In this document: one piece after another, positions 13,171 through 58,582 of the stretch | Position numbering within the stretch: the first letter of the stretch is position 1 | How the letters are laid out: every line of letters starts with the position of its first letter | Source: a virus | Virus record (IMG/VR): IMGVR_UViG_3300025009_000054 | Span: 1 to 64,000 of that record | DNA: 64,000 nt | Direction: 5' to 3' (one strand) | The notes under the pieces: model-generated | Seen by the model: the letters and a program-made list of their open reading frames with translations, nothing else | Told to the model about the DNA's origin: nothing | Databases searched by the model: none | Position numbers and translations under genes: made by a program

Positions 13171-13176
13171 AAAGGG

Positions 13177-19558: not shown

Positions 19559-19572
19559 GATTCCGGCTGGAT

Positions 19573-19773
19573 TCAGAATTTTCTCTTAAGATCTGATGGT
19601 ATTGGGCGATATACGGTGTTCCCATTTCCTAGCGTAAACCAAATACCCCTATTTCTCTTTCCGTAATCCCAGCTAACTACCTTGAGTTTTGGGTCCGACG
19701 GATCTACATCGCGTTGGATAACCCTACCAACAAACCTATTAGCCCAATTATCGATCTGTTCTCTAGTCATCAC
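19573..19773 (-). CDS. hypothetical protein
   Basis: ORF track. Confidence 0.6.
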   Translation of the reverse strand: MMTREQIDNWANRFVGRVIQRDVDPSDPKLKVVSWDYGKRNRGIWFTLGNGNTVYRPIPSDLKRKF

Positions 19774-20132
19774 TTTCTCCTCTCGCGAGAACGCATGCGA
19801 CGTCGTAAACGGGCACGTACGTCCTTGGCGTCTTCCTTCGCAAGAAGAATAGGCTCTTTATTGGGAACGGGTTCTTGGACATTCTCGACAAAAGGTACGT
19901 CTCTAAGCGGGTGAGTGTCTATATAGTGTTTAGCTGGAGAGATAGGATTATCTGTATCTACCATAACAGACACATCACCTTCCCAGCGTTTCTTGAGTTG
20001 ACAATCTGCAGGGTCTAGTAATACTACAGTCTCGCGTGTTCTCGGATCCATTCCTGTAAGTGGTACAGGATAAGCGCACTTCTTGGTTCGTACGCAGTAT
20101 TGGTGGGAGTGACAGCAACCAAATACAGCCAT
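19770..20132 (-). CDS. hypothetical protein, Cys-rich N-terminus
   Basis: FGCCHSHQYC...C motif; GGAGG RBS. Confidence 0.65.
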   Translation of the reverse strand: MAVFGCCHSHQYCVRTKKCAYPVPLTGMDPRTRETVVLLDPADCQLKKRWEGDVSVMVDTDNPISPAKHYIDTHPLRDVPFVENVQEPVPNKEPILLAKEDAKDVRARLRRRMRSRERRK

Positions 20133-20240
20133 CTGTAACCTCCTTTATATCGTATCGATAATCTGAGGCGACTCGTCGCCTGTTGGTTCTTCTTTCGTTT
20201 CCGAAGGAAACGTGGTTCTTCTTAAAATGGTTTTTCTTCG

Positions 20241-20308
20241 GTTCCGCCCGCGAAACACCTATGTTTCGCCCGCGAAACACCTATATGTTTCGCCCGCGAA
20301 ACACCTAT
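20241..20308. repeat. three 22-bp iteron-like direct repeats
   Basis: GTT(T/C)CGCCCGCGAAACACCTAT at 20241, 20263 and 20287. Confidence 0.85.
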
Positions 20309-20325
20309 GCTTCTTCTGAGAATAT

Positions 20326-20733
20326 CTATTTAGATTTCGATTTAGGCCTTTGAACGCGACTGTAAGTAAGTATCCGATATGTCGCGCTACGTTCAGCGTC
20401 GCCCTTATCGAGTATTTCAATGATACCTGCCTTCACCATTTCGTGTATGTGGATATTTATCCTGCCACGAGATGTGCCGACAATATCAGCGATAGTCTTA
20501 CATGATGGAAAACATGTGCAATTTTCACCCTCAAATGATTTTAGTACTATCCATATATGAACCCACGCGTGTTTCCATCCTTTGAACATACCCTTCTTTA
20601 CAGCGTCGTTATAGAGTGGATTGAAGCCATGGCTGGCGTCACACTCTTCGAGATTGACCGTATTTACCAGTGGTTCTGGTTTTATTGGTATCTCGTATTT
20701 CGTATTATCCTCCTTGAGGAGATAGGTCCGCAT
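20326..20733 (-). CDS. winged-HTH protein (replication-initiator-like N-terminal HTH)
   Basis: CFPSCKTIADIVGTSRGRINIHIHEMVKAGIIE. Confidence 0.7.
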   Translation of the reverse strand: MRTYLLKEDNTKYEIPIKPEPLVNTVNLEECDASHGFNPLYNDAVKKGMFKGWKHAWVHIWIVLKSFEGENCTCFPSCKTIADIVGTSRGRINIHIHEMVKAGIIEILDKGDAERSATYRILTYSRVQRPKSKSK

Positions 20734-20884
20734 CGTAAGCCTCCAAACATGAATGTGGCTCAAACTATTTTACCAGAACTTGGACAGCACAGGATTAGTT
20801 TGAGCCACACGATGTGAATGCTTATTAAGTTTTTGTCCTGACTGTCCACATCCTATATTAGTACGGGACAGTCGTGGGACCTAA

Positions 20885-21181
20885 CTACGCCTGGAAATTG
20901 AGATTTGCGGGATCGATCTGAACTACGTTATCTTCAGCAGGCTTTTCTGCCTTGTTTGATGCTACTTTAGCTGCCCCAGCCTTGCCAAAATCGCTAAACT
21001 TTTTGGTGAGCGATGCCGCTACAAATGGAGCGTTATACTTCTCTGCGTACTCCTTGGCCTTCATGCCATGCACTCTACCAAGGTGTGTGATGATTGACGC
21101 TGCCGTGTACGGTTCAGCGACTCCCTGCTCCACGCAAACCTGGCATACAACTGGATCATCTACTTCTAGTCTTTTCGCCAT
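20885..21181 (-). CDS. Ros/MucR-like zinc-finger protein (paralogue 7, divergent)
   Basis: CQVC...SIITHLGRVHGMKAKEYAEKYNAPFVAASL. Confidence 0.7.
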   Translation of the reverse strand: MAKRLEVDDPVVCQVCVEQGVAEPYTAASIITHLGRVHGMKAKEYAEKYNAPFVAASLTKKFSDFGKAGAAKVASNKAEKPAEDNVVQIDPANLNFQA

Positions 21182-21395
21182 AAGAATCACCTCCTTTCCA
21201 AACCAGATATGGTATAAGGTCGAAGGGAAGAGGGATTCTATCTATGCTTTATCTCAAATTCCCAGGTTCATAAGCTATCGCAAGATGAAACTCCGAAAGG
21301 ATCTATCTTTATATCATAGTTGCCGCTCGATTCGGCAGGTATGCTCCTTTCCAAGGGGACCCGGAATTGCCCCTCCGGGTCCCATCACATATTAA

Positions 21396-22424
21396 CTAGT
21401 AGGTGGTTGTTCCATGCTCTATTTCGTCAAGTATCTTTACAGGTTCACCAGGCTGCTGTTCAAAGACATCTTTCCCAAATTCCGCACCGTACTTTTCGGA
21501 CTCTTCAAGCTCTTTGCGCAGCTTCATATCCCGCTCGCGGTCGTTCTTCGGCACGTCTTTCCAAGCTTCGTTCCGGTTTTCTACCTTCGCGAATGCACAT
21601 GCCCAATCGCTTACGAGATCGTTCCATTTACTCTGGAGTCCAGCGGAATAGTCCGCGTTCTTGGACGCTTTAAGAGCTATCTTTACTTTGTCGATATCTA
21701 CCTGTTCCATGCGGTAGCTATACATCTGCTTATAGCTATTCAGCTCAAAATTGAGCGGTTCGAGTGCCTTATCACGTATGGTAGTAGCACGCTTAACTAT
21801 AGTCTCTAGCCGCTTTAACTGCACTGGATATGTGTCACCGTAAGTGCTGAAGTTCTTTCTAGCGATTGCCACCGTATGTTCGAACCTATCATTAGCCTTC
21901 TGAATTCCGGCGTATACGGTCGGATAGGCTGTCATCAGTCTCTCTTTGAGCTTCTCTTCCATGCTGGTGATTCGTACTTCCATGGCAATTCCAATTAGGT
22001 GCTCGACCTCCCATGGAGTATCTTCTACCATATCACATAGAGCTGAGAAGGACTCGATGCTTTTACGTATGGCCTTGACTTCATTGCTATCGGCATTATT
22101 GTCTAACATTACTTCTAATGAATCGTGGCAATGCATCCCACTGTTATGGAGCCAGTAGACAAGGCCATCTATCGTGCCGATTTTTTCATTATAGTATGCA
22201 TTGATGAGTTCTTTGTCTTCCGGTAACGGATCAAACGCCTTGGATTCGTAGTACCACTGTCTATCTTCCAGATCGAACTCGATCTTGTTACCGTCATCGC
22301 TCCTTAGCCCATGGGACCTGAGTATCGCGTCGTGGCTACTCTCATTCGGTTTTGTGATAATCGCGTCGTGACTACCGGCATATATGTCCCTTAACCTTAC
22401 AATGTTAAACTTATTACTACACAT
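21396..22424 (-). CDS. hypothetical phage protein
   Basis: 342-aa ORF. Confidence 0.75.
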   Translation of the reverse strand: MCSNKFNIVRLRDIYAGSHDAIITKPNESSHDAILRSHGLRSDDGNKIEFDLEDRQWYYESKAFDPLPEDKELINAYYNEKIGTIDGLVYWLHNSGMHCHDSLEVMLDNNADSNEVKAIRKSIESFSALCDMVEDTPWEVEHLIGIAMEVRITSMEEKLKERLMTAYPTVYAGIQKANDRFEHTVAIARKNFSTYGDTYPVQLKRLETIVKRATTIRDKALEPLNFELNSYKQMYSYRMEQVDIDKVKIALKASKNADYSAGLQSKWNDLVSDWACAFAKVENRNEAWKDVPKNDRERDMKLRKELEESEKYGAEFGKDVFEQQPGEPVKILDEIEHGTTTY

Positions 22425-22457
22425 TCTAGAATGCCCCCTGTACCTATGATAGGGTAG

Positions 22458-22892
22458 CTACGCTACCCTTAATGCCTGATGTACCGCTAACCAGAAATTG
22501 TATGTGGTGCAGTTGTTTGTACTAGCGATATCGATACCATCCTTCTGAAACTCTACATCGATGTCGTCTGCTTGAGTATCCCTGTCGTACGTGTCATCTA
22601 CCCAGAACGTAAACAGCAGTACGTAGTCGTTAGGTAAGTTTATATACAACTGCGCTCGATCATGCTTACCATCACGATCATTGATTTCTCCGTCCCACTC
22701 AAGTCCCAGGAATTCCATGATGTCGGCGACAACCGCTACTTCGAACTCTGTACAATGCGCACTAGCTGATATTGTGCCGAATCCTATACCGTTTTCCTTG
22801 GCTTCTTCAATGCTCACTCCGATCATACTTGCTTCTTCTCTGACCAGCTCTTCCCAGTTATCGTTAATGACCTTCTGTGTTCTATCTTTCAT
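22458..22892 (-). CDS. acidic hypothetical protein
   Basis: Start MKDRTQK after GGAGG. Confidence 0.7.
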   Translation of the reverse strand: MKDRTQKVINDNWEELVREEASMIGVSIEEAKENGIGFGTISASAHCTEFEVAVVADIMEFLGLEWDGEINDRDGKHDRAQLYINLPNDYVLLFTFWVDDTYDRDTQADDIDVEFQKDGIDIASTNNCTTYNFWLAVHQALRVA

Positions 22893-22894
22893 TG

Positions 22895-23320
22895 TTATCC
22901 TCCTAACTCTATATCGTCTGCTGCCTCGCGCAACATCTTTACCAGTTCCTCTGCTGGAAGCTCGTCGATGAACCCGTACATGCATGTTAGTAACTTGTCG
23001 GCCTTCTCAGCATAGCTCATCGTTGAGTACTGGTTTAGTACGTAGTCTATGCTTGCTCCTAGCGCATCACCCTTCACATCTTTGTTGGGTATGAAGTTAT
23101 TTAGGTAGTCCTGACCATACCCCACCTTATGGCCACAACAATGATATACCTCAAGTACGATCTCGTTGTAGTCAGGTGATTCTACAATTGCGGCCTCTAT
23201 TGGGCTGCTACCATTTTCCCCGATAATAATTGGAGCGTTATTCCCAATCGCTATCGTCTGCGCTACCAACGAGTCAGCAGTTATCTTCTGCTGACAATTC
23301 GGACATGTTAGTGTTTTCAT
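22895..23320 (-). CDS. hypothetical protein, Zn-ribbon-like
   Basis: CPNC...HCCG. Confidence 0.65.
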   Translation of the reverse strand: MKTLTCPNCQQKITADSLVAQTIAIGNNAPIIIGENGSSPIEAAIVESPDYNEIVLEVYHCCGHKVGYGQDYLNNFIPNKDVKGDALGASIDYVLNQYSTMSYAEKADKLLTCMYGFIDELPAEELVKMLREAADDIELGG

Positions 23321-23649
23321 ATTGCTACCCACTCCTCATTTGATGAATAGTATGCAGTCGCGTCACCACGTTCCCAGTATGGAACGTACCCACCACGGTC
23401 GGCTCCCTCTGGATGATCCTCAAGGTAGCCTTCACCAGAATAGTTGGTTACTACTTCTTCGTGATCCCACGTATCATCTTTGTAGAAGTTCTGTACTAGT
23501 GTTACTTTGCCACGCATAGTCGCTGGGCTGTAATGTCGCTCATTCATCTCTTTTGCCAAATCTTCACTTGTTATCTCCGGTTCGTCTACCGGACATATCG
23601 ATTGGTTCTCGCATTGCTCTGCCGGAACCGGACAATCTTCGCAGTTCAT
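23317..23649 (-). CDS. hypothetical protein, paralogue of the C-terminal module of 49159..50286
   Basis: Shares HPEGADRGGYVPYWE...AYYSSNEEW. Confidence 0.8.
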   Translation of the reverse strand: MNCEDCPVPAEQCENQSICPVDEPEITSEDLAKEMNERHYSPATMRGKVTLVQNFYKDDTWDHEEVVTNYSGEGYLEDHPEGADRGGYVPYWERGDATAYYSSNEEWVAI

Positions 23650-24141
23650 AATCTCCTCCACTATCTCCGCATCCCACTCTCCATCAGTTAAGCGAGATGC
23701 TTTTACTTTCGCCTTGATATCGTCTGATAGTGCGCCCCATGTCGGGATCCTGGTATTCTTCGGATTCTTTTCATAGTCATTGGCGGTAAATTCGCGGTAT
23801 ATGTCGGTATACGCATTTTGTATCTCGCCACTATCAACATCACTTTATATATCACTTGACCAGTACCCTCTACATTCAGTATAGAGGAATCCGTATGTAG
23901 CTACGGTTCCATCCTTAAATACGATCAAGTTTCCTATCGTATTGTCTACCTGTGGACCAATGAAAATGTGATAATCTATTTCACTCCTAAATTTTGTTAT
24001 CATCGCTATCCTCCACACGCATTACAGTACATGCTACTACTCCATCGACACGAACCATTAAGTCTGCAGCATCTCTGACTAAGTCAACTGCATTATGGCT
24101 ACTAATGACCTCAGTATCAAACTCAATCTCTAATTTAATTC

Positions 24142-24417
24142 TCATTTGACACCCTCCACCTTCTGTACAAAGATGCTATCGACTTTCAGTTCGGATGTGG
24201 TGAGTAGGTATTTCAGGTTGCTTAATCTCACCCAACCAATTGCCATCTGCTCAAGTCCATGCTCTATCGTATCTGACACTATCGGACCGTTTGGTCCATC
24301 TTCAGTCTCTACATCTAGGCCACACCATCCGGAGAGTTCGTGCCCTATGTATTCGCGTAACTGCTTTTCATCTGGGACATCTACTACCATCGATATCAGG
24401 TACAGATTCTTTGCCAT
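24142..24417 (-). CDS. hypothetical protein
   Basis: Start MAKNLY after GGAGG. Confidence 0.65.
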   Translation of the reverse strand: MAKNLYLISMVVDVPDEKQLREYIGHELSGWCGLDVETEDGPNGPIVSDTIEHGLEQMAIGWVRLSNLKYLLTTSELKVDSIFVQKVEGVK

Positions 24418-24430
24418 CTTGCTACCTCCA

Positions 24431-24658
24431 CTAATCTTCGTCTTCGGGGTATTCCTTATCAAGGTCGTGTATCTCGATTGTTGCTGGACGAACGATATAT
24501 CGGTGATTTATAGCATCGTTGTCAACGTCCGGTAGTCGGTGCAAGTTCTGATCTCCAGCCTCCTCACCAGCATCGCGTACATCGGTGTAGAACTTTGCCT
24601 CATCGAGGTTTATTTCACCATTTCGTTTCACTATTACTAAGTATCCATCTATTTTCAT
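24431..24658 (-). CDS. hypothetical protein
   Basis: First gene after promoter 24697; GGAGG RBS. Confidence 0.7.
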   Translation of the reverse strand: MKIDGYLVIVKRNGEINLDEAKFYTDVRDAGEEAGDQNLHRLPDVDNDAINHRYIVRPATIEIHDLDKEYPEDED

Positions 24659-24696
24659 TCGCTACCTCCATGTTGGACACACTCCAGCGTCCTACA

Positions 24697-24729
24697 AGTG
24701 TAGACGTTTGGTGCCCCGCAGATGGTGTT
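24697..24729 (-). promoter_or_regulatory. ECF-type promoter motif copy
   Basis: AGTGTAGACG-N17-GGTGTT. Confidence 0.72.
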
Positions 24730-25690
24730 CATTTTATCTCTGTGGGGTATATAGACAGCATATATAGGGTACATGGCGGAGATAAGGATAGGGGAAATAC
24801 TATATACATTGGTTCCACCATATCGTTACTGTCGTCATATACCTTGACGACTTTCTGGCCGTCACTATCGTCACTGTCGTATCTATCGTCATCTCCGTCC
24901 TGTCGTCATGGCCGTCACCTATATATGGGGTATTGGGATATACTATATGGGGGTATACCTATATATGCCTGGGCTTAAGGGATATATGGGTAGTATATGG
25001 TATATGGGGTATATACTCTATCTCTGGGTGATATCTCCTATATATGGGATATAGTATATACTCTATCTGGGAATCTAGGTCAGATATCGACATGAGATAT
25101 CAAATAGATATCGACATATATCAGATGGGATATCGGAGTATACTCAATGTGAGTCGGACTCACACAGTGGGTGATTCCTACCGGGACCGAGACAATCAAT
25201 GATAACTGCTCTACGCGTAAGCATGTGAGTCAGACTCACATCCGATAATTGGCTTTTATAAGCGTAAAGAGCGCCGTAGCCGATATCTGATGAGGGCAAT
25301 TGGAGGGTAGTACATGAGTAATTGGAAAGATAAACACAGGACGCAAGAGAACCGGTTCCGGTGCCTCTGTATGGGTAGTGGTGGGTAGTGGTGGGTAGTG
25401 GTGGATAGTTGTAGTAGCCGTAGTGGTATAATCCGGAGCATGAAGCGATGGCTGTAGTGAGAATCCGGTGTTTATCTAAAGGGGGTCTTTTACGCGTAGA
25501 CAATATCTCTTTTACGCTTGGGATAGTATATCTAACCATCTTCTGATATATACAATTTATGCGGGAACGGTGGGAGTGCTATACACTCTATCCTCACACT
25601 ACGTGAATACACCTTAGTAAGCAGCACTCCCGAATAAATTACTACCTCTAATACACGTTCTCTTACTAATCCTTTACACACTCATCAATC
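24730..25690. other. about 1 kb structured non-coding region
   Basis: No credible ORF; TATA/GGG runs, clustered CGTCA, palindromes and a tandem 10-mer. Confidence 0.65.
25148..25241. repeat. two copies of palindrome TGTGAGTC-N-GACTCACA
   Basis: At 25148-25164 and 25224-25240. Confidence 0.8.
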
Positions 25691-35925: not shown

Positions 35926-36858
35926 TTACGCACGTAATACGCCAAATCCATGGCAATGTGGGCAATCTTCTAGTGGTTCGTTAATATCCACCATGAGATC
36001 GTGTAGGTATGACTCAATCTTTTGCTCTAGATCTCTGTAGTTATCACCTTGGAATATCGGGCACGCTGGATAGCCCTTGTATAGACCATCTCTATTTCTA
36101 ATCGGGGCCATTCTGCACACTTCTATATCTCGATGTGTACGATACTGCGTTTGTTTTCTAGACTTTTTGCCAACTATGACTTCCGTTGTGTATGGTTCGG
36201 GTGAATCCAATCTTATATTCTTGGTCACCGTGAGACAGAAATCATAGTCATTCATCCTGGCGTGATGGCCATCGATATTTTCCCTGATATGATGCCTAAT
36301 GATGGCGTATGACTCCTCTGATGTAAGTTTACATGGCCTAGTCGCCAGCAATATATCTGGGAACAAGACTCGATCAATCACTTGATGAATAGCCGTATTA
36401 TCAGTTATTGTCTTTTTGATATTGCGTTCACCGTAGTCGTTATTTTTTGTAATGCTAAACGAGTATCCACGCAGGTCATCTACACTATCAACTTCCGCTA
36501 TTACAGAGATTGATAGCTGTTCATTGACATACTGTTCGGGAACCACGTCATATACCCTATAATACAAAGCAGATACATTATCATCTGGTGAATCTGATTC
36601 CATTGGTAGTATGTCTGTTGGAACGTAACCTTCTCTAAGACGCCATCCATGGTAATCTCTACTCTCTGGAATAACCAACTGACACGTTTCTGGCATCCCA
36701 TCAAGCGCAAACCACAGTTTATGGAATGTTGGCTGTGGTTTCTTACCATCAAACAAAAATGATGATATTACCGACTTATTGCTAACATAGGTTGCGGTAA
36801 CTTCTGATGTAGACGCGACGAGAACACTGGTTCCCATCTTGATACCAAGTAATTCCAT
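35926..36858 (-). CDS. hypothetical phage protein, C-terminal CPHC motif
   Basis: 310-aa ORF. Confidence 0.75.
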   Translation of the reverse strand: MELLGIKMGTSVLVASTSEVTATYVSNKSVISSFLFDGKKPQPTFHKLWFALDGMPETCQLVIPESRDYHGWRLREGYVPTDILPMESDSPDDNVSALYYRVYDVVPEQYVNEQLSISVIAEVDSVDDLRGYSFSITKNNDYGERNIKKTITDNTAIHQVIDRVLFPDILLATRPCKLTSEESYAIIRHHIRENIDGHHARMNDYDFCLTVTKNIRLDSPEPYTTEVIVGKKSRKQTQYRTHRDIEVCRMAPIRNRDGLYKGYPACPIFQGDNYRDLEQKIESYLHDLMVDINEPLEDCPHCHGFGVLRA

Positions 36859-41611: not shown

Positions 41612-41637
41612 AATTCTATTTCCGCTATCCAAATAAT

Positions 41638-41674
41638 GATAATGGCTAAGTCCGATGTAGACTTAGCCATTATC
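41638..41674 (-). terminator. hairpin ending the cargo/sigma gene run
   Basis: GATAATGGCTAAGTC...GACTTAGCCATTATC 15-bp stem. Confidence 0.65.
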
Positions 41675-41699
41675 AGTGAACAAACCACGAGAAATAAGA

Positions 41700-41966
41700 T
41701 CAAGTCGCGGTTCCTATCTTTTGTTTCTTCGATTCTCGTATTGCCTTTTGTACAAACTCAATCGCTATATAGATAACTCCCCAATATATAGCAATCTTCT
41801 CGTTAGTATTGATTGCGCTATGCAACCAAGTAATCCAATTATCAGAGCAATAAGTCAGCAACGCTGACCCAGCAATAGTGGCAAACCTTCTGAGTATTGC
41901 CCCAGCCGCGATCGCCCACGGCTTCCAGTTTTCCTCACTTTTGAGTAGCTGTACCAACCAGTTCAT
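41700..41966 (-). CDS. small membrane protein, holin-like
   Basis: Two hydrophobic helices and a basic C-terminus. Confidence 0.5.
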   Translation of the reverse strand: MNWLVQLLKSEENWKPWAIAAGAILRRFATIAGSALLTYCSDNWITWLHSAINTNEKIAIYWGVIYIAIEFVQKAIRESKKQKIGTAT

Positions 41967-41981: not shown

Positions 41982-44444
41982 TTACACCTTCGTTATCTCC
42001 ATAATAGGGAAATTGACAGCATACTCGCCATTTTTCTTCTTCATTTCATCGATACGCTTAGCCCAAGGCGAACTACGTGGTGCTACTCTATCAACTAGGA
42101 CGAGTGCAGTCTCTGTATCTGGGTTAATATTATCGACTATACCACGCAACTGGTATGTAGAACCAGTCTGCGGATCACGTCTATTAATAGCGACTTCATC
42201 ACCAATTTTGAATGGTATACTAGTCTCAGGTTTCGCATTAGGGTCGTACAGATACTGCAACGGTGCCATCTGGTTATTAACGATGTTATTACCCTTACCA
42301 ACAGCATCCTTAACGCGCTCAACTTTCCTCTTATACTCAGTAGAACCTGGCTCTAGTCCATCAGTCATTCCAAGTGCGTCCGCTACCATCTCTCTATTCC
42401 ATGGGTGTGTTGTGCTACTTGGAAAAGTATGATACATAAGCCACGCATCGCGATGATGTTCTGGCATGTTACTAATTGCATCAGATATTGGAGCTATCGT
42501 ATCTTCCCACTCCATCTGTTCCTGCATCTTGTGTGGTGATCTAATAGCATTTGGTCCATTTGCTTCAAATGAATCATTGCCATCATCACCTGGATCACCT
42601 TCGCTACTGTTTCCATGAGGCGCATCAAGTGATATCTGGTTATCTTCGCGTAACTTCTGTTTACGCAGGTAATCCTTTTTCTGATTATGGGCTATCATAA
42701 ATAGCCATGTCTTAAAACTAGAATTGCCCTTGAACGTATCAATCTTTGCGTATGCGTTAACAAACGTTGACTGAGCAACATCATGTGCCATTTCTTGATT
42801 GCAACCTTCACTCACCATTAGGCCGACCACATTATTATAATTCTTAGATATTAGCTCATCCCACGCACCCTGATTACCTTGGCGTGCTGCATCTACCAGT
42901 GCAAGTTCCTTAGGGTCAACGTTGCGGTAGGTCGGGCGTAGACCCTTCTTACCTTTCTTTGCCGTAAGCACGTACACTTCTTGTGCTATCGCATCAACAT
43001 CACCCTTACTAAGTTTAACACCACTAGACCTGATTTCATCGATGAATATACGGAATGCATCGTTAAAATCCTTAACTTCATTCTCATCATACTCTTCGTA
43101 TATTCGATCCTCCTCTGCTAGGAAGTCCTGTGCGAATTCTTCTACTTGGTCGATTGACAGAGTACGATTTACCAGGCTCTTATTTTTAGTACCCTGATCT
43201 TTAGGACGGGGTATACTTCTATCGAATGTATCGCGTTTCCTTATATCCCCATCATGCTGTCTCTGGAATAATTGCTGCAATATGGGATCTTCTTGTATAT
43301 CATCATCGTCTGATTCAACGCTCTCTGGTAGAAGTCTATCATCTTCACCAGTATATGAATCAGTTTGTATATCCGGAGTCTTGCTAGCATCAATATCATC
43401 GACTACAGGAGCTGTCTTACGACGCTTTACACGACGTCTAACGTCAGCTCTGCTCTCGTCACTATCTGTTTCTTTTGTTTTTGGTGTAGATGTTACGCCC
43501 TTTGGCTTCATATCCCAAGTCATAAGTCCAGCATATGACTCCAACTGGTCCATAGCATCCGAGTCACCAATAACATTCTCAAACCGACTTTTATCAGCAT
43601 TATATGATCGACGTGACAGATGAAATCCCATATCTTCTAGGAGCCCTATATTTTCACGTGTAGTCTGTACCCATCCAACATACTTATCGGCCTTGACTCT
43701 TTCGCCATCTTCTTGCGATACTATTGGCCGACCATAGTGGTCTATAGCTACCACTGACTTAGGTTTTTCATTAGGCGCTATATATCCACATTGTACTGTC
43801 GTGACGAATACACCGTAAAATTGGCCACCAGGTATACCAACTTTAGATTTTTGTTCATATTGGTGCATGATCTCTCCTTCATACACCGGTATCTGATCAC
43901 CATACTCATCGAGTTTAGGTTCACCTTTTTTATATTTAATATACTCTCTTCCGTCTTCATCGGTATCCATAACATTTTCATTATATCGCTCATACTTGGG
44001 CTGTTCGGATTCCTGCATTGTGGATGGTGCACTTCCCATCATCCTTGGTGCAGTAGCGGATGGGTCTAATGTGTGTCCAAGTCCTTGATAATACTTGCAC
44101 CTTACACCAGGAATTACTCCAGTTGTCTCATCCCACCGCTCTTCGTCCCATACTAGCACCGATGTTGGTGCCGCCGATATATCAGGTGCCCCACGACATA
44201 TCTTTACGAAATGTCTGTCACGAAGTAACGGGCATTTCACCATCCCAGGATATTGTATTATACGGTCGACGTATGGCTCAATATGATAGCCAGCATCATC
44301 AGCAATACGCTTGAGTTCCGCTACAGTAACTCCAAGAGTTTTAGCCATCTGTACATCATCTGATCTAAGTAGAGTTTTTGATGCACGTTTGGTAAGATAT
44401 GTTCCCATTTCTGGATATCTATGAAGCAATTCACACAATTCCAT
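41982..44444 (-). CDS. 820-aa multidomain protein containing an ECF sigma factor and a C-terminal KOW/SH3-like domain
   Basis: Sigma2: ELALVDAARQGNQGAWDELI...AHDVAQSTFVNAY...FKGNSSFKTWLFMIAHN...DYLRK. Sigma4: ISDAISNMPEHHRDAW...REMVADALGM. Confidence 0.85.
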   Translation of the reverse strand: MELCELLHRYPEMGTYLTKRASKTLLRSDDVQMAKTLGVTVAELKRIADDAGYHIEPYVDRIIQYPGMVKCPLLRDRHFVKICRGAPDISAAPTSVLVWDEERWDETTGVIPGVRCKYYQGLGHTLDPSATAPRMMGSAPSTMQESEQPKYERYNENVMDTDEDGREYIKYKKGEPKLDEYGDQIPVYEGEIMHQYEQKSKVGIPGGQFYGVFVTTVQCGYIAPNEKPKSVVAIDHYGRPIVSQEDGERVKADKYVGWVQTTRENIGLLEDMGFHLSRRSYNADKSRFENVIGDSDAMDQLESYAGLMTWDMKPKGVTSTPKTKETDSDESRADVRRRVKRRKTAPVVDDIDASKTPDIQTDSYTGEDDRLLPESVESDDDDIQEDPILQQLFQRQHDGDIRKRDTFDRSIPRPKDQGTKNKSLVNRTLSIDQVEEFAQDFLAEEDRIYEEYDENEVKDFNDAFRIFIDEIRSSGVKLSKGDVDAIAQEVYVLTAKKGKKGLRPTYRNVDPKELALVDAARQGNQGAWDELISKNYNNVVGLMVSEGCNQEMAHDVAQSTFVNAYAKIDTFKGNSSFKTWLFMIAHNQKKDYLRKQKLREDNQISLDAPHGNSSEGDPGDDGNDSFEANGPNAIRSPHKMQEQMEWEDTIAPISDAISNMPEHHRDAWLMYHTFPSSTTHPWNREMVADALGMTDGLEPGSTEYKRKVERVKDAVGKGNNIVNNQMAPLQYLYDPNAKPETSIPFKIGDEVAINRRDPQTGSTYQLRGIVDNINPDTETALVLVDRVAPRSSPWAKRIDEMKKKNGEYAVNFPIMEITKV

Positions 44445-44481: not shown

Positions 44482-45006
44482 TTATTCGGATTCGTAGCCT
44501 TCTGGTTCTGCTGAAAATACTAGGTTGACGATTAATTCGCCACTGTCTCCGATCCTTGGTACAGTAACAGATGAGAATGTCCAGTTATCACCATAGATAC
44601 CCACGGACCCGCTGATGCTATCGTAAACTTCTGACCATTTGATATAGTCGTTGGCGTTAAGCTCTTCTATTACTACGTCTTGCACTTCCTTCGCATTTGA
44701 AGGATCGTTAATTCCAGGTATCCCACTAAAGGCTAGCGATATATCACCTGTGATATACATCTTTGAGGGCTGATGTTGGGATAGACCAGATTGCGCTTCA
44801 CCATAACATTCGAGTACTGTCATGATATTGGGCAACTGTTCAGTATCTAGTTCAAATTCTTCTGCATTACCCTCCTGAGCACTATGTAAACTCGCATGTG
44901 ATACCATGCTAGTTAGCCATTCCATGTCTTGCCTCCAAAGGCTCAACGAACACGGGGCCGACGGTTCCACACTTCCATTATACCACGAAAAGCCCATTCT
45001 TGTCAA
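44482..45006 (-). CDS. acidic hypothetical protein
   Basis: ORF track; real start probably MEWLTS. Confidence 0.65.
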   Translation of the reverse strand: MTRMGFSWYNGSVEPSAPCSLSLWRQDMEWLTSMVSHASLHSAQEGNAEEFELDTEQLPNIMTVLECYGEAQSGLSQHQPSKMYITGDISLAFSGIPGINDPSNAKEVQDVVIEELNANDYIKWSEVYDSISGSVGIYGDNWTFSSVTVPRIGDSGELIVNLVFSAEPEGYESE

Positions 45007-45062: not shown

Positions 45063-47963
45063 CTATACTTGACGTCTCGCAACTCGCTGCTCATATTCCA
45101 CTTCAGCCTCAGCCTGACTACGAGCAGCTATGTAGTCGTTCTCGTCAAATTGACCATCCTGTATATCGTATTTGCTGTAATTGAAGTCATCAATTAGGAT
45201 TTCCTCAGTACGGTCTACAATCTCCTGCGATGCAGTTCTCATAGCCGATGCAGAAAATGGCATTGGATCCTGACTAGGAATACCACTAGTTCCACCTACT
45301 GATGGTCCGCTAGTTTCCCATGGAAGATTTCCGGCACCAGGCTGCCTACCCATCTGCGTGTCGAAGTCATTAGTTTTCTGTTCTTTACTTTTAAGATCCT
45401 CAACACGTCTTTTCTTTTTATCTTCTACGATACTGAGAATCCTCGCGGCTTCATTTGTTGCGTGAGAAGCAAGCCTACTACTTACACCATTGGCAATATC
45501 ATAAGCCCTTACCCACCTATCATATGAGCTGCCACCCATTCTACGTGCCATTGACTCTAGCATAGCAATATATCGCTTGCCATCTTCACCAGCATTCTTA
45601 ATCGTAGTTATGGTAGAAGCTAGATCCTGTACTATATGATCATCACTTGAGCCACGATAATCTGCACCAAGATCATTATATGCTTTCATATAGGCACCCT
45701 CAAGATCGCCTATATATCTCAATTGTGCGGCTCTATCCTCAGCTAATGCCATCTGAGTATTTGCCGGTAATCCCCATCTAGAATCGTGATCACCCATGGG
45801 TTTACCAAGAGTAGTAATAGATTTTTGATGATCTCGACCAAATGGATCACTATCCTCAAGCCCAGCTTCATCTTTATTACTATTCATTTCGTTCATGATT
45901 TGATCGGCAGTTGGACCAGCTTCGTGTGGTCCAACTCCAACATCTTTAAGTGTCATCTTTAAAGCATCTTTAAGGCTATTAGATCTATTTCTATTTGCAA
46001 GCAGTTTATCCGTAAAACGAGTCTTACCACTAGACGACCCATCTACATTAATGGATGAACTTGTACTATGATTTACCGCATCACCAGTTGGTGTACTAAG
46101 TACATCCGACAATTCACCATCAGTCTGTGCGGTTCTCATTCCAGTATCGCCACTAACCTCATGCCAGCCATCACTGTCATATCTATTTTTTACTCTCTGA
46201 CACTCAGCGTCACCATAGCAATCAGTAAGCAATTTGCCAGTCTCGGCATCTATGAAATCAAACCACGCCTCTTCTCCATCATGACTATGATCACTCTTGA
46301 TCATATATCCATTACTTACGTCACCATCCATGTCGCGAGTGGCGTGGCCTTCCAATTGATCTTCATGCCTCTGATCAGCATGAATGTCATCGTATTTATT
46401 ATCGTCTTGTGCTGTACGTCTGCCAGGTGACGGGTCATCATTATCGTCACTATCATATATACCAGCGCACATATTCTGTGCAGCCTCTCTAGACAATCTC
46501 TTTTTATGCCCAGTCTTACCAACGCCACAGCTCATAAGGTGAGCAACATGCCCATCAAATCCGCCTTCAAATGAGCCATCTTCGTTCATATGTCTGCAAT
46601 AGTGCTTCTTCGCTTCTACCTTTACCAGTCTAGCGAATTTATCCATATTGCGGGCACCACTGAAAAATCCACTCTGTGGTATAGATATATGCCCATCCCC
46701 ACGGAATTCTTCATCACTACGTATACCTAACTGCGTATCGGTATCAAAGTCGCGATGCATAGCCGGACTATCGTACTGACTGCGTTCTCTATCCTCATGA
46801 TATCCACACGATACGCATTCCATCTTAGCCCAGTGTGGTCCACCACCAGGAATCTCTTCCATATCATTTCCACACTCTGGACAACTACCCATTTCAGAAG
46901 TATCAGCATGGTACTGACTAGTCTTAATTTTCTTAGATTTACCATCTACACCAGCAGTATCAATCTCTACTATATTGAAATCTTTTATGCTATCTTCATA
47001 TTTCTTATCAGTAGGATTACCAAGATGCTGATTATGAGGTTCGGACAGCTCTACTGGCATGGTAAACGGAAGTGCTTCTCTTCCTTTAGGTGCTGAGACA
47101 TCGAACCCAAGATTTGCAATCTCATCAATAACTTCTTCAACATCATCACTGGACATTGATGAATTCATCTTCATCATACCATTGAAAACAGTCTGTATGT
47201 CCTGTCTCGTTTTTTGAGCTACTCTGAGAACCTCTTCGGCCATTCTAGGTGCCGATAATGGTGCACCAGGGAATACTGGATTTCCCCAAGGTCCACCTTT
47301 AAACCCTGCAGCAGTCTTATTCATAGCTGTTAGCTGGTTATGTACTATACTTTCATCACCATTTGGTGAAATATCGGTGCGGTCTGACATCTTACGTGTA
47401 CCAGATTTAGCTATACCAAGATCAACAGCCATATCTTCAAGACTCGGCTTTTCAAGTTGATCTAGAGCGGATGCAACTACCTCATCAAACTGCTCCGGAT
47501 CCAAGTTTTCCTTGAAATAGGTCATAGCCTTATCACGGTGTGTCCTAAAGAACAGACCTATATCATCGATCAGCTCTGTTCTAGTAAGAGTGTCAGCATC
47601 TTTACCGGTATTAAACGTAGTTAGTGCTTTATTAGTGGTGTCTACCATGCTGTCATCATTAGGATCGTCTACTGCATATCGACCATTTGCATATGTCACT
47701 ACAACCGGCATCTTAGATTGGCCTGTCGGGTTAACATATACAACGTCAAACTGTAGTTTTGCTACCCTAACGTTGCCAACACCACACGCATTGATGTCTA
47801 CGTTGAGCATATCCATGCCAGTAAACGAAGCCTGAGCCCCATCCAGTTTCAGAGACTTACAGTATTCACTTACCTTCTTATATGCACATTCGACTAGTCG
47901 GTGACGCTCATCACTACCAATCGATCTATCACTATTCGTATTGAGCGCGGCTTGTATACGCAT
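45063..47963 (-). CDS. 966-aa acidic modular protein, putative virion internal/cargo polyprotein
   Basis: KTAA, RRTAQ, MRTAQ and MRTAS motifs; internal CPEC...CVSC Zn ribbon. Confidence 0.7.
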   Translation of the reverse strand: MRIQAALNTNSDRSIGSDERHRLVECAYKKVSEYCKSLKLDGAQASFTGMDMLNVDINACGVGNVRVAKLQFDVVYVNPTGQSKMPVVVTYANGRYAVDDPNDDSMVDTTNKALTTFNTGKDADTLTRTELIDDIGLFFRTHRDKAMTYFKENLDPEQFDEVVASALDQLEKPSLEDMAVDLGIAKSGTRKMSDRTDISPNGDESIVHNQLTAMNKTAAGFKGGPWGNPVFPGAPLSAPRMAEEVLRVAQKTRQDIQTVFNGMMKMNSSMSSDDVEEVIDEIANLGFDVSAPKGREALPFTMPVELSEPHNQHLGNPTDKKYEDSIKDFNIVEIDTAGVDGKSKKIKTSQYHADTSEMGSCPECGNDMEEIPGGGPHWAKMECVSCGYHEDRERSQYDSPAMHRDFDTDTQLGIRSDEEFRGDGHISIPQSGFFSGARNMDKFARLVKVEAKKHYCRHMNEDGSFEGGFDGHVAHLMSCGVGKTGHKKRLSREAAQNMCAGIYDSDDNDDPSPGRRTAQDDNKYDDIHADQRHEDQLEGHATRDMDGDVSNGYMIKSDHSHDGEEAWFDFIDAETGKLLTDCYGDAECQRVKNRYDSDGWHEVSGDTGMRTAQTDGELSDVLSTPTGDAVNHSTSSSINVDGSSSGKTRFTDKLLANRNRSNSLKDALKMTLKDVGVGPHEAGPTADQIMNEMNSNKDEAGLEDSDPFGRDHQKSITTLGKPMGDHDSRWGLPANTQMALAEDRAAQLRYIGDLEGAYMKAYNDLGADYRGSSDDHIVQDLASTITTIKNAGEDGKRYIAMLESMARRMGGSSYDRWVRAYDIANGVSSRLASHATNEAARILSIVEDKKKRRVEDLKSKEQKTNDFDTQMGRQPGAGNLPWETSGPSVGGTSGIPSQDPMPFSASAMRTASQEIVDRTEEILIDDFNYSKYDIQDGQFDENDYIAARSQAEAEVEYEQRVARRQV

Positions 47964-49158: not shown

Positions 49159-50286
49159 CTATACGCTAGCCCATTCCTCATTAGACGAATAATACGCCTT
49201 AGCTCCATTGCATTCCCAATATGGAACATATCCTCCGCGATCTGCACCCTCTGGGTGGGCGTCAACATATCCAGTTCCAGGGCAGTCAATGGGCTTTTCA
49301 TCTATGCCCAGTATTTGAACCTTACCTTTATTTACATCTGGGAACGCAGACTTCTGATTCAGCTCTTCAGCTAACTCTTCATTAGTCATAGAATCACCGC
49401 CAGAACCTGACATATCGTACTGTGCAGTTCTTGGTTCAGAGTTATCAGAGTAGCCACCCTGCTGTAGGGCATTATCGAATTCTTTTCTATCCCAGGTATG
49501 CTGTTCATTATCTTCTGTGGGCCCACCTACACCATGAATAGCTAGCACTATCGCATTATAGGCATCGCCATCTTGAGATCCAGGCTCAACATCACTGATA
49601 AGACCATTAGGACCGGAGACTTCTATGCTGCCCCACTCTGAATCTGACTCATATGAGACTCCATTGATTAGCCACTCTTGGTGGAAGTTACCATCATTTT
49701 CATCAGTCGATACGAGCCGAATATTGATGGTACCACCCTGCTCTTGTGCGGTTCTTGGTTTACCACTGTTAAGTTCATCCTGATCTGCGGGAGCGGTAGT
49801 CATATCTTGATACTTCACTACATATTTTGGTTTTCCGGTAGTGGGATCAATTGTAGAGCTGTCGATAGTACCGGATTTACCATTATAATTCACCTGCTGG
49901 CCATTACTATAGGTCTGCTGTGCCGTTTTCGACATAGCAACCTTGGCCCCACCAAACGATAGTGGCTTTAGACCTTTCGCTTGCAAGTAGCCACGTACCA
50001 TGTCATCATCGTCATCTTGCGCTCTAACAAGCATTTCGCCATCAACCATCCATATAGCTCCAGTTGACGGATGCTGATATACGCCCTTACCGTGATCTAC
50101 TAGCTGCGCGGTTACAGACCTACTAAACGGCACACTATCCCTGCCCTCTAGAACTACAGAAGTAGGGTCAATTTTATTACTAGCCGTCCTCATGCTGGCT
50201 GTCCGGTTCTCAGCGATAGCATCGGATTCTAAGTCTGTAAGAAAACTTGGCAGTTCATCGTACTGCCGCGCTATTTTTCTAAACAT
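49159..50286 (-). CDS. modular putative virion cargo polyprotein
   Basis: RTASMRTAS, KTAQ and two PRTAQ; last module paralogous to 23317..23649. Confidence 0.75.
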   Translation of the reverse strand: MFRKIARQYDELPSFLTDLESDAIAENRTASMRTASNKIDPTSVVLEGRDSVPFSRSVTAQLVDHGKGVYQHPSTGAIWMVDGEMLVRAQDDDDDMVRGYLQAKGLKPLSFGGAKVAMSKTAQQTYSNGQQVNYNGKSGTIDSSTIDPTTGKPKYVVKYQDMTTAPADQDELNSGKPRTAQEQGGTINIRLVSTDENDGNFHQEWLINGVSYESDSEWGSIEVSGPNGLISDVEPGSQDGDAYNAIVLAIHGVGGPTEDNEQHTWDRKEFDNALQQGGYSDNSEPRTAQYDMSGSGGDSMTNEELAEELNQKSAFPDVNKGKVQILGIDEKPIDCPGTGYVDAHPEGADRGGYVPYWECNGAKAYYSSNEEWASV

Positions 50287-50352: not shown

Positions 50353-50385
50353 AGTGTAGACGCACAACGAGAGCTAGGTGGTGCC
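50353..50385 (-). promoter_or_regulatory. ECF-type promoter motif copy heading the run that includes the ECF sigma gene
   Basis: AGTGTAGACG-N17-GGTGCC. Confidence 0.8.
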
Positions 50386-52127: not shown

Positions 52128-52434
52128 TAATACGTTCTGGCTTTACTCCAAGCTTTGCGGCACGTTCAATACCCTGCCCGACGCCTTCTTCCATTTCACC
52201 ATCTGAGAGTGGTCCTTCAGCTAGTGCCTCTGATACGACGTGTGCTTCCTTATTGGCACGATCATCATTACAATAAAATCCTGGTCCAATAAATCTTGTA
52301 GCTACACGACGTGATAGCTGTTTTTCTGTTTTAGTACCACAGGCACATTCCGGTCCATTATTCATTTCAGAAACAGATCTAAATACTTCCTGAGTATCTC
52401 CGCATTTTGTACACTTATATTCATAGAGTGGCAT
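52054..52434 (-). CDS. FmdB-family zinc-ribbon protein
   Basis: MPLYEYKCTKCG...CACG...FIGPGFYCND. Confidence 0.85.
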   Translation of the reverse strand: MPLYEYKCTKCGDTQEVFRSVSEMNNGPECACGTKTEKQLSRRVATRFIGPGFYCNDDRANKEAHVVSEALAEGPLSDGEMEEGVGQGIERAAKLGVKPERIIGHELAEKYIYKTKGEEIVAATSV

Positions 52435-54041
52435 TATCCACACCTCCTAAGGTTTCTTGCTTTTACTATAAATCTACGTGCGGCACCACGCCATTCCCTA
52501 GATGGATCATCATGGAAGTTGCGTGTAGTCTGATGGTTTATATCTTTATCCCACTGTCCGGTGTATTTACCATCAGATAGATCTAATAATTCTTCATTAA
52601 CATTAAATAGATCTGTGTTGGCGAAATTATCTCCATTTGGTGTGTACTCGATGATGGATCCGCCGTTATGGTGGACATGCACACCATAGCTTACTGCAGC
52701 GGCAAGTTGCCCATCATCTTTTGCATTTGTAATCATGTAGTACAGCGTGCTTATTCCAATGGCCGCATCATCGCTAACTGAGTTACCATCTTTACTCCTA
52801 CCTGGTAGCATCGCCGCTGAGTTCATTAAATTTGATATTATCATCATTCCAATAGAGTTGTTTAACAGCGATATCTCCGTAAACAACTCTGACATATACC
52901 ATATATCATCGATGTCACTTTTATATTCCTCAGGTATACGATTTATCGCCCTGTACACGACATCAGGATATTCTTTCTTCAATTGGTCGACGAATCCATG
53001 TACGACGCTCAATTTCCCATTTTGTCTAAGGGCAAATGATATCGATGATATATGGCCTACTGCCCATTCCATACATGCGTTTTCAAATTCATACGCCATA
53101 CGGCTAGTTACGTCCTTGAATTCCGACTGCAACTTATCATAGTCAGCCATAGCATTACCGCCGAACGACAACTTATATTCAAGCTCGTACCACCTTTTGA
53201 TGAGGTCTACATCTATTGAGATGCCATCGGCTTGTGCTGTTCTCATACTAATAGATTCACCTTGACTATCAACCAATATATCCCTAATCGTAGTACCTGT
53301 AGTAATCACAACTCCTGGATTAATATAATATGTCTTACTATTATCACTGTTACTAAACTTCCATATTGACTCAGCCTCATCACTACCGAAATATAATGCA
53401 CTCTCCCCTAATGATGCCTCCAATGCTATTGCTAGATCATCACCACGACCTGGATTATCACTAAAGTCTGGTCTGCCAGGGCATATATATCCAGCCATTA
53501 TATCGTACAGTGTTATAGCGCTATCCCTTGGCTCATCTAGAAAATCATATCCAATATTATGAAACCACTCCTGTATATCATCAAGGTTCGATCTTATCCA
53601 TTGATTAAACGGATCACTCTGTGCTGTTCTCATAGCTGTGGTATTAAACTGGCCAGGCACAGGTATTACTGGCTCTACTACAGGTTGATAATTTGGATTG
53701 TCACCACCGATGGATTCTTCCCACGTTTTCGGCTTATTCTTACCAAAGTATACTGCCGCAGCTAGCGCATGGCTACAGAACCTGTTGCGCAAGTGGAATC
53801 TCTGCATAATCTTGCACCACTGGCCCCACAAACAGTCACAGCTCCACCAGTTTACAGCCTCTGGGTTTGATCTACCACCAGGATATGCGAGTACTATATT
53901 GTATGTACCATGATGGCCATCAACTGTACCCTCAAATCGCTCTGGTGTCATCACACTTGGATGAACAGCACCACTATGGTATAGCTTAAATGCCTTACGC
54001 TTTACATCAGACCACGCGGCCTTACGTTCCATCTCATTCAT
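52434..54041 (-). CDS. SWIM zinc-finger modular protein, putative virion cargo
   Basis: WSCDCLWG...CSHALA; two MRTAQ; N-terminal ERKAA. Confidence 0.75.
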   Translation of the reverse strand: MNEMERKAAWSDVKRKAFKLYHSGAVHPSVMTPERFEGTVDGHHGTYNIVLAYPGGRSNPEAVNWWSCDCLWGQWCKIMQRFHLRNRFCSHALAAAVYFGKNKPKTWEESIGGDNPNYQPVVEPVIPVPGQFNTTAMRTAQSDPFNQWIRSNLDDIQEWFHNIGYDFLDEPRDSAITLYDIMAGYICPGRPDFSDNPGRGDDLAIALEASLGESALYFGSDEAESIWKFSNSDNSKTYYINPGVVITTGTTIRDILVDSQGESISMRTAQADGISIDVDLIKRWYELEYKLSFGGNAMADYDKLQSEFKDVTSRMAYEFENACMEWAVGHISSISFALRQNGKLSVVHGFVDQLKKEYPDVVYRAINRIPEEYKSDIDDIWYMSELFTEISLLNNSIGMMIISNLMNSAAMLPGRSKDGNSVSDDAAIGISTLYYMITNAKDDGQLAAAVSYGVHVHHNGGSIIEYTPNGDNFANTDLFNVNEELLDLSDGKYTGQWDKDINHQTTRNFHDDPSREWRGAARRFIVKARNLRRCG

Positions 54042-54060: not shown

Positions 54061-55044
54061 CTATCCTTTATTTCTAGTTTGCAACGTATTACGTTCTGGT
54101 ATCTTATAGTAATCGATACCCATATCATCATTATATGCAGACTCAAGTTGTGGCCTATCGATAACATATATCTGGCTATTATCGAACACTATATATGATT
54201 TCCCACCCTCATATTCGTTATCATAGATAATTCCATCATAACCCTTAGACTTAAGGACGCTCACAAAATCTTGTGGAGTTTTTATCGTACCATCAGTAAA
54301 CTCCTCAGATACTCGACTATCACTACCGAACGCATTTTTGAGATTCTGTACCTCGTCCCAATATAAGGGATCACGATTAGTGTACATAGGGTTATTTATA
54401 CGCAAATACGCACGAAATACGTATGGGTCGGTATCACTCTCGTATCTATCATATGACGACTCTACGGCACCAGTCATATTATCGAAAGTACCCTTATCTC
54501 CAAAGTGGAAACCAATATCACCGTGTTCAAAGGTAGTAAAATCCTTATCAGTTATGTGATACACCACCATCGGCTTTCCATTACCATCAACTACCTTTGA
54601 TCCATTAAACCACGCCTCTACATCTGTATCTGTAGTTTGTGATGCTCTCTGTCCTGGAAATCTATTGGTTACAGGTGATCCCACGGTGCTCGGCATGTAA
54701 CCACGTGTAGCATCATTGATTTCCATCCCGCCCATTACAGGACTAACATTAAATAACATTAATAGGTCTGGATTGTCCTTCGATTCTTCTACGATATTTC
54801 CAATAGCTGTTACTCGATCAGGATATGTGTCCGCATTATACAAATCTATAAATAGCGGCTTATACTTGTCTGCGGCCATAGCTGACTGCTCACTACTGTA
54901 GATGATATCGGCGTATCCTATGAGCTGATTATAGAGATCATCAACTAGTTTTGGGTCGAACCATCCTTGTGAATCATTTCTATATAATTCACCAAGCTCA
55001 ATGACGTTAATTTGTTGTGCCGAAGACTTCATTTGTTCCTCCAT
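54061..55044 (-). CDS. protein with ART-PolyVal-like ADP-ribosyltransferase-fold domain
   Basis: WFNGSKVVDGNGKPMVVYH...GFHFG...AYLRINNP...GYDGIIYDNEYEG..SYIVFD. Confidence 0.7.
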   Translation of the reverse strand: MEEQMKSSAQQINVIELGELYRNDSQGWFDPKLVDDLYNQLIGYADIIYSSEQSAMAADKYKPLFIDLYNADTYPDRVTAIGNIVEESKDNPDLLMLFNVSPVMGGMEINDATRGYMPSTVGSPVTNRFPGQRASQTTDTDVEAWFNGSKVVDGNGKPMVVYHITDKDFTTFEHGDIGFHFGDKGTFDNMTGAVESSYDRYESDTDPYVFRAYLRINNPMYTNRDPLYWDEVQNLKNAFGSDSRVSEEFTDGTIKTPQDFVSVLKSKGYDGIIYDNEYEGGKSYIVFDNSQIYVIDRPQLESAYNDDMGIDYYKIPERNTLQTRNKG

Positions 55045-57814: not shown

Positions 57815-58582
57815 TTATAGAACCATGTCGCCAAATACTAATCTCAGATCTTTTTTAATAGTACTAATGCGGTTGACAACACGTGTCTCACTAATACCAA
57901 ACATTGCGCTTATGGTCTTGTAGTTTTGTTCGGGGAGGAAGAAGTAAGCGTGGAATATATCGTAATCAAATTTTGTATAATTATTGAGTATGTGATCTAG
58001 CATTGTATCGACAAGTGACTTCGCATCTAACCTAGCGATTATAGCATCGGTATTGTCATCCACACATGGGCTTAAAGCATCTAAAACTGACGGATCCCCT
58101 ACCAGAACATTTCTATTCTGGTCGCGCATTAGTCGTTCTATTTTATCGAGAGCCCTAATGGACAACATCCTCTTTACAAATACATTATAATATGCAGGAC
58201 CACCAATAGTATAGTCATGTAATGTAAGCTTAGTAAATTCACTACGCGACCACACATATAACTCTTCCCACGATATTAAATTTGCATGACCTATGTAGTA
58301 TTTCTTAGTAACGCTAACAATAAGGGCTTCAAATTGTCTGAGTAGCCACTCCATAGACTCATTATCGCCATCCTGTGACAATGCTACGCGTCTATTTATT
58401 TCCGCTATTAGTGCTTTTTTACCACCGGTGCCGCCCTGTACATGACTAGGCGGCACCACTTCAATGCTATGCTCAGGCGATCTACACATATCGCATAGAC
58501 CCACATCATTATCTGAATCGATTAGATATCTAATTCCACATTCGGCACATGTGCCAAATATACCATCAGGTCCCATCACCAT
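57815..58582 (-). CDS. sigma-70-family RNA polymerase sigma factor with N-terminal Zn ribbon
   Basis: SQDGDNESMEWLLRQFEALIVS (region 2) and QNYKTISAMFGISETRVVNRISTIKKDLR (region 4). Confidence 0.75.
   Translation of the reverse strand: MVMGPDGIFGTCAECGIRYLIDSDNDVGLCDMCRSPEHSIEVVPPSHVQGGTGGKKALIAEINRRVALSQDGDNESMEWLLRQFEALIVSVTKKYYIGHANLISWEELYVWSRSEFTKLTLHDYTIGGPAYYNVFVKRMLSIRALDKIERLMRDQNRNVLVGDPSVLDALSPCVDDNTDAIIARLDAKSLVDTMLDHILNNYTKFDYDIFHAYFFLPEQNYKTISAMFGISETRVVNRISTIKKDLRLVFGDMVL

Follow-up and report, generated by a model that had tools for sequence, protein, structure and literature searches.

The takeover of the host RNA polymerase by phage sigma factors is textbook knowledge, and it is well established that early, host-transcribed phage sigmas such as SPO1 gp28 and phiEco32 gp36 activate later genes. 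Like these two proteins, the sigmas of crAss-like phages redirect the host core enzyme to phage promoters. Bacterial sigma factors of the extracytoplasmic function (ECF) type, including RpoE, AlgU and SigW, comprise about 190 amino acids (aa) and contain a two-domain sigma2-sigma4 core without region 3. N-terminal extensions are uncommon and generally short according to the 2021 ECF re-classification, in which BldN is the sole well-described case and phage sigmas are largely omitted (PMC7826278). Here we analysed the first 64 kb (hereafter, the window) of the 142.7-kb phage record IMGVR_UViG_3300025009_000054 of IMG/VR, in which an open reading frame (ORF) of 820 aa (P0001; Table 1) encloses an ECF sigma module. 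Based on the sequence of the locus, we estimate at roughly 0.5 the probability that this phage follows a classical cascade, in which the sigma would be made early from a host-type promoter and would then switch on the phage promoters.

The existence of a giant fusion with an ECF sigma module, as proposed in the original prediction for this DNA, was confirmed. Metagenome gene callers give the same 820-aa ORF, whose ribosome-binding site (RBS) is AAGGGGA, and the module matches Pfam Sigma70_r2 (PF04542) at residues 531-597 (expectation value, E, 7.8e-13; 48.5 bits for a cut-off of 24) as well as AlgU, RpoE and SigW in a phmmer search against PDB (residues 513-608, E down to 6e-12). TIGR02937, the model of the ECF superfamily, was matched with 56.2 bits (cut-off 42.9), residues 527-694 corresponding to positions 2-146 of 165, and the SigY, RpoE and SigW models of NCBIfam were matched as well. 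In a MAFFT alignment of 48 sequences (the 820-aa query and 47 bacterial ECF sigmas), which was also used as input for AlphaFold2, the protein retains all invariant columns of regions 2 and 4. In the resulting model the predicted local distance difference test (pLDDT) reaches 96-98 in sigma2 and 58-73 in the four sigma4 helices. Foldseek placed sigma2 on region 2 of E. coli sigmaE bound to minus-10 DNA (4lup) with a template modelling (TM) score of 0.90 and a root-mean-square deviation of 1.3 A, the two regions being 33-36% identical in sequence, and 203-214 columns were aligned to the whole of E. coli sigmaE, AlgU and SigW. By sequence and model, sigma2 is a near-canonical ECF domain, closest to those of RpoE, AlgU and SigW.

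The original prediction had described a full sigma2-sigma4 unit, a statement that stands for sigma2 and only in part for sigma4. The latter is recovered by TIGR02937, MAFFT, AlphaFold and Foldseek, whereas the Pfam region-4 models gave no match to the 820-aa protein even at E<=10, and residues 610-736, compared by hhalign on their own with an ECF profile, reached E 0.073, in the correct register. The alignment revealed a 6-residue insert between regions 4.1 and 4.2, an altered recognition helix and a linker between sigma2 and sigma4 about 18 aa longer than usual, which is unstructured in the AlphaFold model; as in other ECF sigmas, region 3 is missing. Foldseek also returned weak NusG matches for the model of the sigma module, which probably correspond to the barrel at the C-terminus; this C-terminal domain is possibly KOW/SH3-like according to its predicted fold, and Pfam searches with the last 225 and the last 111 residues of the protein found nothing. 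Altogether, we conclude from sequence and structural modelling that a complete ECF core is likely present, with a non-canonical sigma4. The ORF can be assigned to a sigma factor of the ECF type (group 4), of phage origin and contained in a much larger protein.

In comparison with its bacterial counterparts, the phage protein differs in its size, which exceeds the compact 170-250 aa or so of the ECF family, in its orphan N-terminus and extra C-terminal beta domain, and in the longer linker, a sigma4 that escapes Pfam and the lack of a recognisable anti-sigma partner. The nearest matches among GenBank phages are sigma genes of crAss-like phages, which encode small proteins (cr55_1, 188 aa; the ORF in MT835510, at most 218 aa) in contrast to the giant fusion described here. 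The sigma module appears to be produced only within the 820-aa protein, since no in-frame internal start with an RBS precedes it. A search of 5.8e9 proteins for full-length homologues returned only the 820-aa protein itself, and paralogous modules were absent from the proteome and genome of the phage (phmmer and tblastn).

Residues 1-500 had been described as unknown, acidic sequence. Their orphan character was upheld by an exhaustive phmmer search of 1.84e9 representative proteins, which gave one spurious repeat match in a 3463-aa protein; the acidity, on the other hand, is mild (isoelectric point, pI, 4.96 vs a proteome median of 5.39) and residues 431-510 have a pI of 4.49 and a net charge of -8. 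No Pfam or PHROG family was found in this N-terminal part, and ESM Atlas had no usable match for residues 1-320. A single-sequence AlphaFold model of residues 1-510 had a mean pLDDT of 38, and weak structure emerged only at residues 1-60 and 431-497. The highly charged residues 311-430 are probably disordered, judging from their composition. The N-terminal 500 aa probably modulate the activity of the sigma, either by autoinhibition, in the manner of a pro-sigma, or by tethering.

The sigma gene is the middle gene of a predicted self-contained unit formed by a host-type consensus promoter, a 147-aa gene, the sigma gene, an 88-aa gene and a terminator, as indicated by a unique perfect promoter upstream and a terminator hairpin downstream. 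No other 12/12 match to this promoter consensus is present in the 142.7 kb of the genome; in shuffled genomes, perfect promoter matches occurred 0.14 times per genome, and those with the TG extension 0.013 times. The hairpin that had been reported to close the gene run is real (Table 1). Pfam and PHROG gave no match for the 147-aa protein, the longer 174-aa frame of which has a pI of 4.06, and the 88-aa protein showed no family matches and no recognisable anti-sigma domain. The possession of its own sigma70-type promoter fits de novo synthesis of the sigma by the host polymerase and makes its delivery in the virion unneeded.

The second component of the proposed circuit is a repeated promoter, GGCACC-N17-CGTCTACACT, with 17 matches in the window, all of them on the minus strand, where 0.02 were expected; over the whole genome, 22 good copies of TTGGCACC-N17-CGTCTACACT were counted, all on the coding strand. 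The ECF-like nature attributed to this promoter is supported by its GTC minus-10 core and GG-AC minus-35, and the copy reported at 50353 is also real. It is not confined to the promoter-dense 8.5-24.7 kb region, as further copies lie at 140466, 119115, 101515 and 50362. In almost every case (window 9120-24729; genome 101515, 119115 and 140466) a TTGGAGG is found within about 3 nt of the promoter, so that motif transcripts would start practically at the RBS and the elements would represent compact promoter-plus-RBS cassettes. The possibility that TGGCAC belongs to a sigma54 promoter was rejected, as no conserved TTGC is present at the required spacing, and a k-mer search retrieved no convincing second over-represented intergenic promoter motif. 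The 384-aa protein encoded downstream of the 101515 copy (genome 100305-101459) contains a weak GerE/LuxR-type helix-turn-helix (HTH) at residues 318-352 (E 1.1e-4, slightly below the cut-off of Pfam) and could represent a further transcription factor in this circuit.

Promoters of E. coli sigmaE carry GGAACTT and GGTCAAAA (PMC1312014; PMC1540707). The pairing of the 820-aa protein with the 22 motif promoters as their cognate sigma is plausible, since the GTC minus-10 core and GG-AC minus-35 of the latter resemble the promoters of E. coli sigmaE and since sigma2 finds its best matches, in sequence as well as structure, among sigmaE-type proteins; the likely targets of the phage sigma would thus share both elements with those of the bacterial ECF sigmas. 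In the cascade favoured here, host sigma70 polymerase would transcribe the three-gene unit after DNA entry, and the newly made 820-aa protein would bind the host core polymerase and redirect it to the ECF-like promoters. Their control would extend over the array of small genes at 8.5-24.7 kb as well as the portal/protease/capsid blocks, the genes of the candidate cargo and the giant ORFs. The sigma had also been thought to be autoregulated from the promoter copy at the head of its gene run. This is possible by read-through, as no convincing terminator was found between 50362 and 45006, and transcription from the 50362 copy could then add positive feedback.

Several observations weigh against this cascade. 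The sigma70 consensus that the promoter at 45006-44977 matches may not be that of the host. As no homologue exists outside its own phage, conservation cannot be used as an argument for the function of the sigma. The 147-aa protein reached a language-model score of 0.96 against clusters of small proteins annotated as Baseplate_J C-terminal domain, a lead that found no HMM support, the Baseplate_J Pfam model finding nothing in the genome; if real, such a resemblance would hint at a virion-related unit. A gene of the PurA family (PF00709, adenylosuccinate synthetase; E 8.9e-48) is located at genome positions 98094-99296, and the incoming phage DNA may carry 2-aminoadenine, which could, by analogy, weaken the recognition by sigma70 of the A at -11. 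To our knowledge, none of the known phages with a Z genome needs packaged transcription factors. For the related base 2-aminopurine, placement at -11 was reported to weaken sigma70 recognition at a weak promoter (PMC4496690). With regard to the pairing, the sigma4 recognition helix is too diverged for its specificity to be predicted, the motif promoters have CAC in the minus-35 instead of the usual ECF AAC, and their spacing exceeds the optimum of sigmaE by about 2 nt; the last two deviations may go together with the divergence of sigma4 and the extra length of the linker. In addition, the motif promoters could be read by a host ECF sigma or by the product of a second, very divergent sigma-like gene (57815-58582, 255 aa).

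The last point leads to a possible, if rather unlikely, alternative in which the 820-aa sigma serves other promoters or titrates the host core while the motif promoters are read by the 255-aa protein or by a host ECF sigma. The 255-aa protein matches PHROG sigma families (E 2.5e-7 and 6.8e-5) and, weakly, region-4 models and TIGR02937, the 820-aa protein has an atypical sigma4, and the AAC signature usually required by ECF sigma4 domains (PMC1540707) is missing from the minus-35 of the motif. Nevertheless, no ECF sigma2 is detectable in the 255-aa protein, the GTC minus-10 core is a hallmark of sigma2 domains like that of the 820-aa protein, and the k-mer search left the latter no second motif to read. 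A variant that we consider unlikely is that the N-terminal 500 aa keep the sigma inactive until they are removed or displaced, acting as a timing switch. The extension of BldN is about 86 aa in length. N-terminal extensions are rare in ECF sigmas; that of BldN (ECF121) is degraded to yield the mature sigma, and that of M. tuberculosis SigC (ECF36s4) is suggested to hinder contact with DNA (PMC7826278). Like these, the phage protein has an extension before its ECF core that may gate activity, sigma2 being preceded by a charged linker that is probably disordered (311-430) and by an acidic segment of helices (431-500), with no internal translation start. However, it is about six times as long as that of BldN, is unrelated in sequence to those of BldN and SigC and has no homologues, and no protease site was recognised in the 820-aa protein.

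According to the original prediction, the sigma would be packed in the capsid with neighbouring cargo proteins and injected, so that the motif promoters would fire before any phage protein synthesis. Part of the evidence points in this direction. A scan of the whole predicted proteome (42,339 aa) found the strict motif [KR]TA[QS] 12 times, confined to four proteins, three of which flank the terminase while the fourth is a head-maturation protease fusion with two copies of the motif (Table 1). This restricted distribution strongly suggests, at the sequence level, a prohead-protease site common to the enzyme and to the three terminase-flanking proteins. The sigma gene lies just downstream of these RTA[QS]-studded proteins and near a gene for an ART-PolyVal domain protein, an arrangement reminiscent of the internal proteins of T4 (IPI-III and Alt), which are targeted to the capsid and processed by a protease, and of phage polyvalent proteins; read-through from the 50362 promoter could co-express it with the candidate cargo genes, the KRAS at residues 19-22, inside the N-terminal helical bundle, is close in position to the RTAS of the protease (residue 25) and of the 375-aa protein (28-37), and a genome with 2-aminoadenine might hamper host sigma70 on the incoming DNA. 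The idea of bringing transcription machinery along with the DNA is also shared with the virion RNA polymerases of N4-like, crAss-like and phiKZ-like phages, although those are complete polymerases that have been described as virion-borne, whereas here only a sigma subunit would be involved.

Against packaging, the 820-aa protein contains no strict motif, and the TKRAS that had been taken for a cargo motif in its N-terminus did not withstand closer scrutiny. In a site matrix built from the 12 strict sites, these score 22-28 bits, the next best site in the proteome 11.9 bits and the best window of the sigma protein 4.3 bits, while the KRAS/TKRAS window, at -7.0 bits, comes in 1493rd place. With 53 occurrences, or roughly one per 800 aa, the loose pattern [KR].A[QS] is at chance level. 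No N-terminal leader common to the sigma and the candidate cargo proteins was seen, nor do they have modules in common. The placement of the gene in the head region was not confirmed either, since the portal, protease and capsid genes are found at 125-133 kb, about 80 kb away, with only the terminase gene nearby. Polyvalent proteins are strings of effector domains, often MuF-anchored, encoded near portal and terminase (Iyer et al., 2017), whereas Pfam, PHROG and NCBIfam recognised only the sigma module in the 820-aa protein, with no MuF or effector domain; the word "Sigma" is absent from the text of the polyvalent-protein survey (PMC5512222), and our literature searches did not turn up any report of a sigma factor delivered in virions. 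Considering that the gene also possesses its own perfect sigma70-type promoter, which sets it apart from genes of the T4 internal-protein type, packaging in the virion is left without support and appears improbable. Even less credit can be given to a combined scheme in which the sigma would also be made late through read-through from 50362, its orphan N-terminus would load it into the capsid, and it would be injected together with DNA possibly containing 2-aminoadenine, the ECF-type promoters then firing without host sigma70, given that minus-10 recognition of this type could hinge on a flipped cytosine and not on adenine. If true, capsid injection of the 820-aa sigma would be the first case of a virion-delivered sigma factor.

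Table 1. Positions of the sigma locus and associated features (window coordinates unless marked as genome; residues refer to the 820-aa protein).
Feature	Positions	Strand	Basis and remarks
Perfect extended-minus-10 sigma70-type promoter, TTGACA-18-TGgTATAAT	44977..45006	-	Lies between the 966-aa and 147-aa ORFs, in a gap of 137 nt
First gene of the unit, 147 aa	44482..44925	-	Gene call; GGAGG ribosome-binding site
Sigma fusion ORF (P0001), 820 aa	41982..44444	-	ORF call; same ORF from metagenome gene callers
Helical bundle with HTH-like pair, residues 1-60	44265..44444	-	Single-sequence model, pLDDT 61-75, low weight
Orphan region, residues 61-430	43155..44264	-	61-310 without confident model; 311-430 highly charged
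Acidic helical segment just ahead of sigma2, residues 431-500	42945..43154	-	Helices, pLDDT 50-62
ECF sigma2 (regions 2.1-2.4), residues 513-608	42621..42908	-	Pfam, phmmer, TIGR02937, AlphaFold, Foldseek
Diverged sigma4, residues ~637-721	42282..42536	-	TIGR02937, MAFFT, AlphaFold, Foldseek; weak by sequence alone
Beta-rich C-terminal domain plus one helix, residues 750-820	41985..42197	-	AlphaFold, pLDDT 75-86
Third gene of the unit, 88 aa, two hydrophobic segments	41700..41966	-	Strong ribosome-binding site 15 nt past the sigma stop
Intrinsic-terminator-like hairpin closing the unit	41637..41675	-	17-bp stem and U-rich tail, -29.5 kcal/mol, z -6.4
Motif promoter heading the 375-, 369- and 966-aa genes	50353..50385 (~50362)	-	Motif scan; real
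Motif promoter upstream of the portal/protease/capsid block	genome 140466		Motif scan
Motif promoter heading the giant 1273-aa and 1423-aa genes	genome 119115		Motif scan
Motif promoter heading the 384-aa gene	genome 101515		Motif scan
Strict-motif protein, 966 aa, flanking the terminase	45063-47963		[KR]TA[QS] scan
Strict-motif protein, 375 aa, flanking the terminase	49159-50286		[KR]TA[QS] scan
Strict-motif protein, 535 aa, flanking the terminase	52434-54041		[KR]TA[QS] scan
Strict-motif protease fusion, 1162 aa	genome 126854-130342		Residues 81-214 match head-maturation protease family; two motifs

The phage is an uncultured groundwater virus that was assembled repeatedly from Rifle aquifer metagenomes, and since the contigs break at differing places its genome map is probably circular or permuted. 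A greedy ORF call located 159 of 176 ORFs on the minus strand. Among cultured phages, Bacillus phage G comes nearest, with identities of 31.6% in the terminase and 35% in the portal. No close relatives were found among GenBank phages (megablast, 20 kb), and scans of IMG/VR that used the sigma protein or the terminase as query gave no relatives either; comparative genomics is therefore impossible. Two genes past the terminase of phage G lies the gene of a small sigma of 208 aa, gp3 (NC_023719.1, 1-3839). Synteny with this gene was rejected as evidence, since by BLASTP gp3 is dissimilar to both the 820-aa and the 255-aa sigmas; the peptidase encoded beside gp3 likewise showed no BLASTP similarity to either of them.

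Other features of this genome were recorded. The portal (887 aa, genome 130572-133235) matches gp14 of phage G in two separate pieces, and the intervening part of about 370-400 aa (approximately residues 290-690) resembles mycobacteriophage genes annotated as nucleotidyltransferase/HNH; it may represent an intein or an inserted mobile domain. According to precomputed Pfam labels of a metagenome contig, an ART-PolyVal ADP-ribosyltransferase domain is encoded upstream of the terminase (window 54061-55044) and a Gad1-like (anti-Gabija) protein downstream of it (window 35926-36858), both of which are likely involved in counter-defence. Adjoining the promoter array, 1.5 kb of DNA (window 23662-25143) contain no minus-strand ORF of at least 60 aa and are rich in repeats of the TATATACC / CCATATA type; this stretch could serve as an origin or have a regulatory role. 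Rfam gave no matches in 40-52 kb.

While the takeover of the host polymerase by phage sigmas is familiar, an ECF core embedded in an orphan protein of 820 residues is not part of the textbook picture. The locus described here constitutes a testable circuit, with one consensus host promoter, one phage sigma and 22 near-identical, RBS-bearing promoters in a genome of 143 kb that possibly carries 2-aminoadenine. If the proposed pairing is true, it would provide an orthogonal sigma-promoter pair as well as a case for asking what an extension of 500 residues does to an ECF sigma factor.

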